The notes beneath the pieces were generated by a model. That model searched no databases and was not told where the DNA came from. It saw nothing but the letters and a program-made list of their open reading frames with translations. 32,000 nucleotides of DNA from the NCBI RefSeq assembly GCF_000007985.2, contig NC_002939.5:1860001-1892000 (forward strand). Direction: 5' to 3'. Origin of the DNA: Geobacter sulfurreducens PCA (GTDB lineage Bacteria; Desulfobacterota; Desulfuromonadia; Geobacterales; Geobacteraceae). Below are positions 18,078 to 18,771 of this stretch, one piece after another. How positions within the stretch are numbered: the first letter of the stretch is position 1; each line of letters begins with the position of its first letter. The translations under genes and the position numbers were made by a program.

Positions 18078-18294
18078 GTGACCGCCTCTTCCAGTTTGCT
18101 TGCCCTTTTCGGTGAGCAAATAGGCCACCTTTAGGGGTTTATCGGGAAAACCCGGAAAACCTCATAGTCAAGACGGTTGTGGCCGCCATGCTTCGTTTGC
18201 TTCACATTTTCGTGAAATGAACAATAGTCCACCGTTGGGCGACCACCTTTGGGGTTTCTCCCTTTTTCGGTGAAAACCCTCATAGTCCACCCCA
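18078..18294. repeat. Two tandem ~101-nt hairpin-repeat units (18078-18178 and 18179-18294)
   Basis: Both units start GTG(A/G)CCGCC. Each contains a hairpin with an (A/C)TTTTC loop, a TAG(T/G)CCACC 9-mer, TTT(A/G)GGGG plus a second hairpin, and CATAGTC. The second unit carries a 14-nt internal duplication (18234-18247). Confidence 0.6.
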
Positions 18295-18541
18295 TCACGC
18301 AAATCTGCTTGGCGGCGTCTAAAGAGATGAGGTATTCGATGGTCTTTTGAGGACGCGCTTTTGTGCTCCCCGATTTCGGGGAGCTCAAACCTTGAGCGGT
18401 GATATAGTCCACCCCATCGACCAACATAGCCTTAACGATCTGTTCCTTAATCCAAGAGGAGAAGTCTTTGCGCACCCCAAGGGCCTTATGTAGCTCCCTT
18501 GCGTCTACTGCGTTGACTGTCCCGGCACTGAGTACTTTCAC
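18131..18541 (-). CDS. AntA/KilAC-type phage antirepressor-like protein; 3' third is built from repeat units, so it may be chimeric or decayed
   Basis: GTG start. Residues 1-90 resemble AntA-type antirepressor domains (VDARELHKALGVRKDFSSWIKEQI...GVDYI...IEYLISLDAAKQICVM). The last ~45 codons are the translation of the hairpin repeats and lose family resemblance. Confidence 0.55.
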   Translation of the reverse strand: MKVLSAGTVNAVDARELHKALGVRKDFSSWIKEQIVKAMLVDGVDYITAQGLSSPKSGSTKARPQKTIEYLISLDAAKQICVMGWTMRVFTEKGRNPKGGRPTVDYCSFHENVKQTKHGGHNRLDYEVFRVFPINP

Positions 18542-18636
18542 CTCTCAGGCTTCCGTATTTGGCTTCTGAGCGGTTTTCATTGGCTAACCCTAGTCATCCT
18601 ATTACCAAATAAGGCGGCTTATTTTAGGCGTCTCTA

Positions 18637-18669
18637 CTGCTTGGCGCGTCTAAAGAGATGAGGTATTCG
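18637..18669. repeat. Near-identical copy of an AntA coding fragment (partner at 18305-18338)
   Basis: CTGCTTGGCGCGTCTAAAGAGATGAGGTATTCG differs from 18305-18338 only by a 1-nt indel (GGCGGCG vs GGCGCG). The partner encodes IEYLISLDAAKQ, while this copy is outside any ORF. Confidence 0.7.
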
Positions 18670-18771
18670 GTGCGAACAGAAGAGCCTTTTCTCGTTTCAC
18701 ATTTTCGTTAAACGAGGTGTAGTCCACCTTTGGGGTTTTTCACGTTGGCGTGAGAAACGTAGTCCACCCCA
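18670..18771. repeat. Third, dispersed ~102-nt hairpin-repeat unit
   Basis: Same architecture as 18078-18294: a hairpin at 18691-18716 (CTCGTTT/AAACGAG, loop region ATTTTC), TAGTCCACC at 18720, TTTGGGG plus a 10-bp hairpin at 18735-18758, and TAGTCCACCCCA at 18760. Confidence 0.6.

Follow-up and report, generated by a model that had tools for sequence, protein, structure and literature searches.

Roi of phage HK022 is an 'antirepressor-like' phage protein whose N-terminal domain is a helix-turn-helix and whose C-terminus is of the KilAC type; it reportedly binds a site within its own coding sequence. Sites acting in cis lie inside the gene of the binding protein also in the case of pac in small-terminase genes and of parS within spo0J/parB. 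Here, a repeat family is described from a stretch of 32,000 nucleotides (nt) of Geobacter sulfurreducens PCA (contig NC_002939.5, positions 1,860,001 to 1,892,000; hereafter the window, to which positions refer unless another locus is named). The family is made up of a ~58-nt piece of AntA-domain genes that is present seven times, in minus-strand orientation. Judged from comparative sequence analysis, these are probably duplicated AntA segments that carry a dyad, the dyad being a predicted operator of the AntA protein within its own gene and the array in the window being composed mostly of orphan relics.

Roi is the closest known precedent, as its site is reportedly embedded in its own gene, which is also proposed for the AntA operator. 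The N-terminal domain of Roi is Rha-like and not AntA, however, and the Roi dyad differs in sequence and has odd spacing. Roi of phage 933W has the architecture of a Rha-like helix-turn-helix followed by KilAC. In roi genes of the 933W type, a dyad TTCAACTT-N13-AAGTTGAA stands at the wing start (codons 42-51) and shows compensatory changes between variants. It is located at L179 18853-18881 (933W roi), and such intragenic dyads are also present in L261-L340. These roi-type dyads suggest that a self-embedded operator may not be limited to AntA. Iterons of the lambdoid origin of replication in the O gene have a similar look, as they are dyad-symmetric (in 933W, ATCCCTCAAAACGAGGGA) and translated within the gene of their binder; they occur in tandem copies and vary between phages together with the specificity of the protein. 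Their spacing is N5 (odd), and the copies are near-identical and ~20 base pairs (bp) apart, whereas the AntA dyad has N6 and is normally found once per gene. No similarity between AntA and O proteins was found in Pfam, and there is no replication gene in the genomic island that holds the repeats, unlike in the lambdoid origin context. In pac and parS, site and specificity are linked by the same logic as proposed for AntA, but the protein families and functions differ.

Antisense RNAs are described for the gene class of AntA (P22 sar, P1/P7 c4, and N15 CA RNA), and C4 and sRNA-Xcc1 genes flank several AntA genes. These RNAs act at the ribosome-binding region, in non-coding leaders, whereas the AntA dyad is embedded in coding sequence and has no RNA signature. 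Rickettsia palindromic elements are in-frame insertions in protein genes; they are mobile, ~100-150 bp long, and scattered over unrelated genes. Like the AntA dyad, they are palindromic DNA translated as a protein loop. The AntA dyad, unlike these elements, has a fixed position in one domain family and covaries with the residues of that domain. The literature searched, the coverage of which is incomplete, contained no account of AntA genes with a conserved palindrome or a self-operator.

Identity of the repeats

The 9-mer TAGTCCACC occurs five times within 550 bp (18225, 18283, 18405, 18720, and 18760), always on the plus strand, compared with 0.16 occurrences in shuffled sequences. The longer form TAGTCCACCCCA is also present, as are near-copies at 18121 and 18165. 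Hairpins were found next to the copies, as reported in an earlier interpretation of this DNA made without database searches (the sequence-only reading). Folding is predicted for both strands, the unit z-scores lying between -1.5 and -3.6; plus-strand hairpins have z-scores of -1.5 to -2.6, and those of the minus strand fold no less well.

On the minus strand, the 9-mer is GGTGGACTA, and a three-frame reading gives the codons (G)-V-D-Y. It is the G-V-D-Y codon block bounding each copy of the module. The ~58-nt segment encodes a beta-hairpin 'wing' between two conserved Asp-Tyr motifs. In homologues of the AntA open reading frame (ORF) of the window, the central segment is composed of DGVDY, a variable stretch of ~17-24 amino acids (aa), and (D/E)Y-LISLDAAKQ. 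The variable stretch is of five types, designated a (VSHANVKNPKGGRPPVDY), b (CLLHENVKREKGSSVRTEY), c (CLTHADVKQTGRGGHNRIDY), d (ITAQGLSSPKSGSTKARPQKTIEY), and e (EVYGGKPKNPKGGRPTVDY). All five were found in sister islands (L005, L006/L007, and L008/L009), either within the reading frame of an AntA gene or in a gene fragment, and modules a, b, c, and e are in frame in P0003, P0004, and P0006. The modules of the window align to one DNA consensus, GGTGGACTA-nnn-GTTTnTCAC-GAAAAn-GTGAnAAAC-CCCAAAGGTGG..., and only module d is native and in frame there. Six extra modules (a, b, e, c, e', and c') stand in shifting frames, with spacings of 40, 58, 60, and 44 nt, and do not keep an intact reading frame. 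The ORF tails that they supply are therefore not real protein, and family resemblance stops where the repeats start, at aa 83 of the AntA ORF (Pfam AntA match, aa 12-83 of 136) and at aa 78 of the BRO-N ORF (aa 2-78 of 101). Both points agree with the sequence-only reading. For annotation, the long ORF tails of the island are artefacts of duplicated gene segments.

The repeat unit of ~101 nt given earlier has to be revised. The true repeat is a module of ~58-60 nt, and each of the former units comprises two modules (e+c, e'+c', and a+b). The 9-mer copy at 18405 and the hairpin at 18365-18384 are both part of the intact AntA domain of the ORF and not of an added unit. Covariation in the stems was recovered by RNAalifold, which predicted eight pairs for 11 Geobacter-type modules, every one of them changed on both sides. 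Tandem Repeats Finder reported no repeat in the region because the copies are too diverged; a search for repeats and inverted repeats recovered partial repeat families there.

A palindrome conserved in AntA genes

AntA genes were collected from species-representative genomes, GenBank phages, and viral contigs, and 222 genes were reduced to 105 representatives with <80% identity in the wing segment. The best ungapped hairpin was scored with +1 for a Watson-Crick pair, -0.5 for G·T or A·C, and -1.5 for other mismatches. A score of at least 7 was reached by 91 of the 105 representatives, and the spacing is even in 89 of those 91. The mean best-hairpin score is 8.9 in the wing, compared with 5.4 and 5.0 in the flanks, 5.2 after resampling of synonymous codons, and 4.9 after shuffling (p ~1e-13). 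In an independent set seeded with Firmicute and Bacteroidete phages, the score is 9.0 vs. 5.1-5.3. For the first 80 representatives, taken from genome and viral loci up to L178, the mean fold z-score between the two D-Y motifs is -2.7, compared with about -0.5 in flanks of equal length. No other 40-nt fold in the whole gene is as strong as the hairpin in Ant of phage 933W (CTATTTCCCagaaacGGGAAATAG), in lactococcal phage phiLC3, and in phages of Listeria, Streptococcus, and Riemerella. The 933W genome (61.7 kb) has five different perfect palindromes whose arms measure 9 bp or more; the Ant hairpin is one of them, and at least three of the others lie between annotated genes.

When aligned at the axis, the dyads give a 24-bp consensus with TTCCCCAAA before and TTTGGGGAA after the axis (tTTCCCCAAA and TTTGGGGAAAa). 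Across the arms (positions 4-12 from the axis), Watson-Crick pairing reaches 83-99%, compared with just 31-54% at positions 1-3; the centre is an A/T-rich segment of 6 bp. From the axis, it is 42 nt (interquartile range 40-44) to the end of the second D-Y motif, and the axis is found in all three codon phases (41, 30, and 18 genes). Together with the codon-resampling result, the occurrence in all phases shows that the palindrome is not a by-product of the amino-acid sequence.

Coupling of helix-turn-helix residues and half-site bases

The AntA ORF of the window carries the AntA/AntB domain PF08346 (Pfam E = 3.9e-22), and its PHROG matches are anti-repressor Ant families. The AlphaFold2 model of the domain has a mean predicted local distance difference test (pLDDT) score of 74.7 and consists of a strand (11-13), two helices (14-21 and 27-37), a strand (46-52), a low-confidence loop (53-65), another strand (66-73), and a third helix (74-83). 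According to this model, the domain is a helix-turn-helix with a long wing, the tip of which is encoded by the dyad (codons 53-59). A PDB sequence search and a Foldseek search with the model returned no informative relative and no solved AntA structure.

Residues were numbered relative to the invariant Trp of F-x-x-W-I-K, and mutual information between residues and dyad bases was computed over 89 representatives. It is significant only for residues -7 to -1, +2, and +3 and for bases -7 to -4; in the AlphaFold2 model, the coupled residues are at the N-cap and first turns of the second helix. Asp at residue -4 goes with C(-7) in 53 of 53 cases, and another residue there goes with T, A, or G in 36 of 36. 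Lys or Arg at residue -5 is associated with C(-5), i.e. G on the partner strand (63/69), Gln with A (7/7), and Ser or Thr with T (7/8). At residue -2, Ser is found with C(-7) (42/44) and Ala with T (20/21). Asn at residue -1 accompanies G(-6) in 22 of 28 cases, and Thr and Asp accompany C (27/32 and 14/15, respectively). Asp-C, Lys/Arg-G, and Gln-A are classical amino-acid-base preferences. The contingency tables replicate separately in two locus sets.

Co-change was tested along the edges of minimum spanning trees built from the remaining residues. Odds ratios of 136 (p = 1e-16) for residue -4 and base -7, 9.3 (p = 8e-6) for residue -2 and base -7, and 13.9 (p = 7e-7) for residue -5 and base -5 were obtained; co-change was not significant in six control residue-base pairs. 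As reasoned from codon tables, the arm bases lack complementarity to the codons for these residues, so that the coupling is not explained by alternative nucleic-acid pairing.

The head of the window AntA is K-D-F-S-S-W, and its own dyad, GAGCTCCCCGAA and ATCGGGGAGC on the two sides of the axis, has the half-site TCCCC, as the residue-base code predicts. Sister islands have FADW heads with ..TCAC.. dyads (L005 AntA#2 and L006) and an FAHW head with a ..TGCC.. dyad (L009). Half-sites of the six extra modules are mostly of the TCAC type, and several of them (e, e', and c') are asymmetric or register-shifted. The extra dyads would thus be cognate to an AntA of the FADW type, which is not intact in the window strain, and they would be orphan copies. 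Most likely, the resident AntA matches only its own dyad d, and the six extra dyads are orphan relics, as predicted from the code.

Selection and alternative explanations

The dyad is kept by purifying selection at the nucleotide level, independent of the reading frame. Among close relatives (50 minimum-spanning-tree edges, codons with unchanged amino acid), synonymous differences were found in 4.9% of arm codons, compared with 17.7% elsewhere in the domain (Fisher p = 5e-13), which is a ~4-fold suppression. One-sided arm changes were commoner than double changes, and this, together with the low substitution in the arms, argues for purifying selection and not for neutral hairpin-templated conversion. 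The earlier view of the hairpins as something other than ordinary coding sequence, kept by selection on the nucleotides, is borne out. It is extremely unlikely that the palindromes have no function and are kept by hairpin-templated correction in a tolerant protein loop, or that the units are a mobile hairpin element of small size. Between the window (18360-18389, GAAATC) and L005 (5821-5850, GATTTC), dyad d has an inverted centre, with a change of Lys56 to Ile. Such an inversion is a signature of hairpin-mediated events, and loop flips and module duplications are recurrent. The slow, mainly one-sided evolution of the arms speaks against such an origin, as do specific bases conserved across phyla and the lack of target-site duplications and of copies at unrelated sites. 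The covariance model built from the modules (R1) likewise matched only AntA-context modules in the 32-kb window and the sister loci. What the sequence-only reading took for a possible spreading hairpin element holds only as a local duplication of gene segments, and nothing similar was found elsewhere in the window. A functional role of the extra-dyad array is also unlikely. The array could serve AntA-type proteins, encoded by the island or by incoming phages, as a multi-site sink or landing pad, or it could be a store of alternative wing-and-operator cassettes for recombination. Seven dyads within 700 bp, stems that are largely paired even in frame-broken copies, the presence of AntA and BRO-N fragments beside a serine recombinase in every sister island, and the recurrent in-frame duplication of dyad modules in intact AntA genes (L056, L064, L124, and L158) would fit such a role. 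The array is not conserved between strains, however, as it is missing in L005 and composed of a different set in L006. Its spacing is irregular (40-60 nt), the dyads e, e', and c' have lost symmetry or register, and the resident AntA is predicted to read TCCCC and not the TCAC type. Protein-binding sites, the second proposal of the sequence-only reading, come closest to the present results in that the dyad bases covary with AntA helix-turn-helix residues; as an array they fit less well, with diverged copies and mixed half-sites.

The first proposal of the sequence-only reading was a structured RNA of the plus strand that would be antisense to both the AntA and the BRO-N ORF and would control antirepressor expression in the manner of P22 sar or P1 c4. 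This is very unlikely. Plus-strand hairpins do fold, ant genes are under established antisense control, and C4 and sRNA-Xcc1 genes adjoin AntA genes elsewhere; the minus strand folds equally well, however, and no pairing with the dyad is seen for the known C4 and Xcc1 RNAs encoded near AntA genes, the best duplexes of which are elsewhere. No Rfam family was found at the dyad, and the region gave no Rfam match at gathering or permissive thresholds (E up to 10). Promoter-like and terminator-like sites in the region are at shuffle level, without enrichment, and an alignment-wide look at 80 AntA genes revealed no conserved antisense promoter of the sigma-70-like type at any position. In the window, G-T wobbles that favour the plus strand are in excess (~5 vs. 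1, counted by hand), but the excess is not significant and is gone across the family. Non-Watson-Crick pairs in the family set were 23 G·T, 28 A·C, and 40 others, and in the replicate set 9 G·T and 12 A·C. G·T is thus about as frequent as A·C, as expected for fresh point mutations in a DNA palindrome and not for a single-strand RNA helix. Homologous loci hold the same segments as in-frame coding sequence within AntA genes, which is essentially the observation that the sequence-only reading had named as contradicting it, and an RNA helix does not explain why half-site bases follow protein residues. The palindrome could instead be a hairpin of the sense messenger RNA, with a role in processing, stability, or translation, the island copies being relics. 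This is improbable, even if the hairpin is strong, conserved, and under synonymous constraint, and even if its sense-strand loop is A-rich. G·U is not preferred over A·C, the spacing is even and specific arm bases are conserved, and the arm bases covary with helix-turn-helix residues like classical amino-acid-base contacts. T-rich flipped centres recur in L005, L025, L027, L099, and L139; a symmetric DNA site takes no harm from a flip of its centre, in contrast to an RNA loop of specific sequence.

Several other candidates were rejected. A replication-origin iteron array does not agree with stems and half-sites that differ between copies, with spacings of 40-60 nt, or with the lack of a rep gene in the 5.3-kb island. 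A mobile hairpin similar to miniature inverted-repeat transposable elements or repetitive extragenic palindromic (REP) sequences was dismissed on the matches of the covariance model R1. Serine-recombinase crossover sites were discarded, as the catalytic motif is found only in nine Geobacter-type loci of 178. An intrinsic terminator, frameshift or hop signals, a hairpin sequestering the Shine-Dalgarno sequence, and attC- or REP-like sites were ruled out by sequence inspection. Also by inspection, the 9-mer is not a DnaA box, as TAGTCCACC agrees with TTATCCACA at just 6/9 positions.

The predicted self-operator

In the favoured explanation, the dyad would be the operator for a dimer of the AntA winged helix-turn-helix inside its own gene; we infer that the AntA domain binds the dyad as a dimer. 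With the site within ~100 nt of the codons for the reading residues, the specificity of the protein and its site would stay linked. The expected effect would be autogenous control or anchoring of the AntA protein at its own gene. Some observations do not sit well with this. About 13% of the representatives have no clear dyad, and some dyad arms are 18-23 bp long, longer than in a typical operator. The dyad is present only once in the 933W genome, with no other regulatory target evident besides its own gene. The coupling is comparative, with phylogenetic structure only partly controlled, and the mechanism of duplication is deduced from repeat geometry alone. Stems of the extra dyads in the window are also still fairly intact.

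AntA is among the commonest domains of temperate-phage early regions, with essentially unknown function. With somewhat less confidence than for the window itself, it can be proposed that AntA 'antirepressors' are sequence-specific DNA binders with an operator in their own wing-tip codons and a residue-to-base code. They would form a self-contained cassette that diversifies and duplicates as a unit, and the island array would be a by-product or possibly a sink. If this is true, thousands of 'antirepressor' annotations should be reconsidered as autogenous DNA-binding regulators, and the residue-base table provides directly testable predictions of specificity. It would be a clean natural case of a binding site that overlaps the coding sequence of its reader protein, and it would explain the recurrent synonymous constraint and module duplication in AntA genes.

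Arrangement of the modules

Two stretches of modules are found on the minus strand. The first consists of the BRO-N domain, GVDY with module a (truncated), VDY with module b (frame-shifted), and EYLISLDA... The BRO-N ORF is at 18697..19002 (-), but the true domain ends at ~18769 (..FKRW); from 18768 downwards, the ORF runs through out-of-frame AntA modules, whereas the orthologue in L005 continues as ..KRWVTHEVLP. Truncated module a (18729..18771, -) reads G-V-D-Y VSHANVKNPKGG and has the dyad GTTTCTCACG-CCAA-CGTGAAAAAC at 18735-18758; it is 98% identical to the in-frame AntA segment of L006/P0006. Frame-shifted module b (18673..18728, -) reads VDY TSFNENVKREK.. and has the dyad CTCGTTTAAC-GAAAAT-GTGAAACGAG at 18691-18716. 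It matches the second AntA segment of P0006 (CLLHENVKREKGSSVRTEY), and the covariance model matches 18672-18728, which is one of its training sequences. An orphan AntA C-terminal fragment (..EYLISLDA) follows at 18646..18672 (-) and is a duplicate of 18315-18341 with 96% identity (repeat family D6).

The second stretch consists of the AntA domain with native module d (..CVMG), VDY with module e, VDY with module c, LDY with module e', and ..Y with module c'. The AntA ORF (18131..18541, -) has its true domain at aa 1-84 (to ~18290), and its last ~52 codons are modules e, c, and e' out of register; homologues cover just 60-68% of the ORF. The predicted DNA-reading head, codons K25-E33 (KDFSSWIKE), is at 18443..18469 (-) and comprises the N-cap and the first turns of helix two in the helix-turn-helix. 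The native wing, module d (VDY ITAQGLSSPKSGSTKARPQKTIEY), stands in frame at 18338..18413 (-). Its dyad at 18360-18389, with the arms GAGCTCCCCGAA and ATCGGGGAGC, is the inverted repeat I3 with 93% complementarity and a fold z-score of -3.6. Module e (18234..18291, -; VDY E.FTEKGRNPKGGRPT) has a degenerate dyad at 18252-18279, and the covariance-model match at 18234-18291 is again a training sequence. Module c (18174..18233, -; VDY CSFHENVKQTKHGGHNRL) has its dyad at 18195-18222 and is homologous to the in-frame segment CLTHADVKQTGRGGHNRIDY of P0004/L005. Truncated module e' (18130..18173, -; LDY EVFRVFPINP) has a two-part dyad at 18134-18163 and a partial covariance-model match. Module c' (18072..18129, -; ..Y LLTEKGKQTGRGGHIRL) has its dyad at 18095-18120 and ends at 18072, where the region of an 83-aa ORF starts. 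The segment 17779-18071, which carries this ORF, has no match in L005 and cuts module c' at 18072.

Duplication of the modules

The arrangement of modules is a mosaic among strains with the same transfer-messenger RNA (tmRNA) island. Both junctions run into (A/G)TGGGGTGGACTA, which fits exchange at short repeats or microhomology. The direct repeats GGGGTGGACTAY (9-12 nt) and microhomologies are the most likely sites of the replication slippage or unequal exchange from which the extra modules would have arisen. Intact AntA genes with two or three in-frame copies of the dyad module were observed in Methylorubrum and other hosts (L056, L064, L124, and L158), and duplication of the dyad module is thus recurrent outside Geobacter.

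RNA genes in the neighbourhood of AntA

In several phages and prophages, AntA genes have neighbours of the Rfam families C4 antisense RNA, sRNA-Xcc1, and isrK; one of these cases is immediately upstream of ant in 933W. They were located at L010 3723-3950, L011 803-888, L142 997-1081, L090 447-535, L103 1334-1424, and L163 1335-1417. The Geobacter window has no member of these three families. A pan motif (Rfam RF01749) was predicted at 8700-8777 of the window, with a score barely over the gathering threshold; the region is that of pantothenate genes in sister loci.

Locus and tmRNA island

The repeat family is located on a 5.3-kb island downstream of the tmRNA gene (14131-14486). The island is flanked by the 20-bp direct repeat TCCCGCCACCTCCACCAATT, found at 14470-14489 (3' end of the tmRNA gene) and, 5.3 kb downstream, at 19781-19800. 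These copies are attL and attR of the island. Encoded on the island are a DUF6538 tyrosine integrase, a serine recombinase, the 83-aa ORF, the AntA and BRO-N ORFs, and an 82-aa ORF. The gene of the serine recombinase (16906-17487) has a near-consensus promoter at 17517-17545 (11/12 positions). The recombinase stands beside AntA and BRO-N fragments in all Geobacter-type islands (L001-L009) and with none of the other ~170 AntA loci. The 83-aa ORF (17818-18069, +) encodes a signal peptide and a coiled coil, with weak Rz-like spanin matches. The 136-aa AntA ORF is identical in many assemblies, with shared gene order, and the strain of record AP017912.1 has a counterpart of the locus with ~88% identity to the window. 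An 87-aa fragment identical with the tail of the window AntA (P0001) is filed under Klebsiella pneumoniae on a 264-nt contig; this record is probably contamination with Geobacter DNA.

A conserved spacer of ~100 nt recurs after each BRO-N or AntA module, at 18600-18640 of the window and at L005 5590-5690, 5905-6000, and 6240-6330. An AT-rich hairpin (..AAATAAGCCGCCTTATTT..) opens this spacer, which extends to the ribosome-binding region. Genes of L005 are truncated onto it (..EK.PY.GRGK*), which gives the locus a cassette-like layout.

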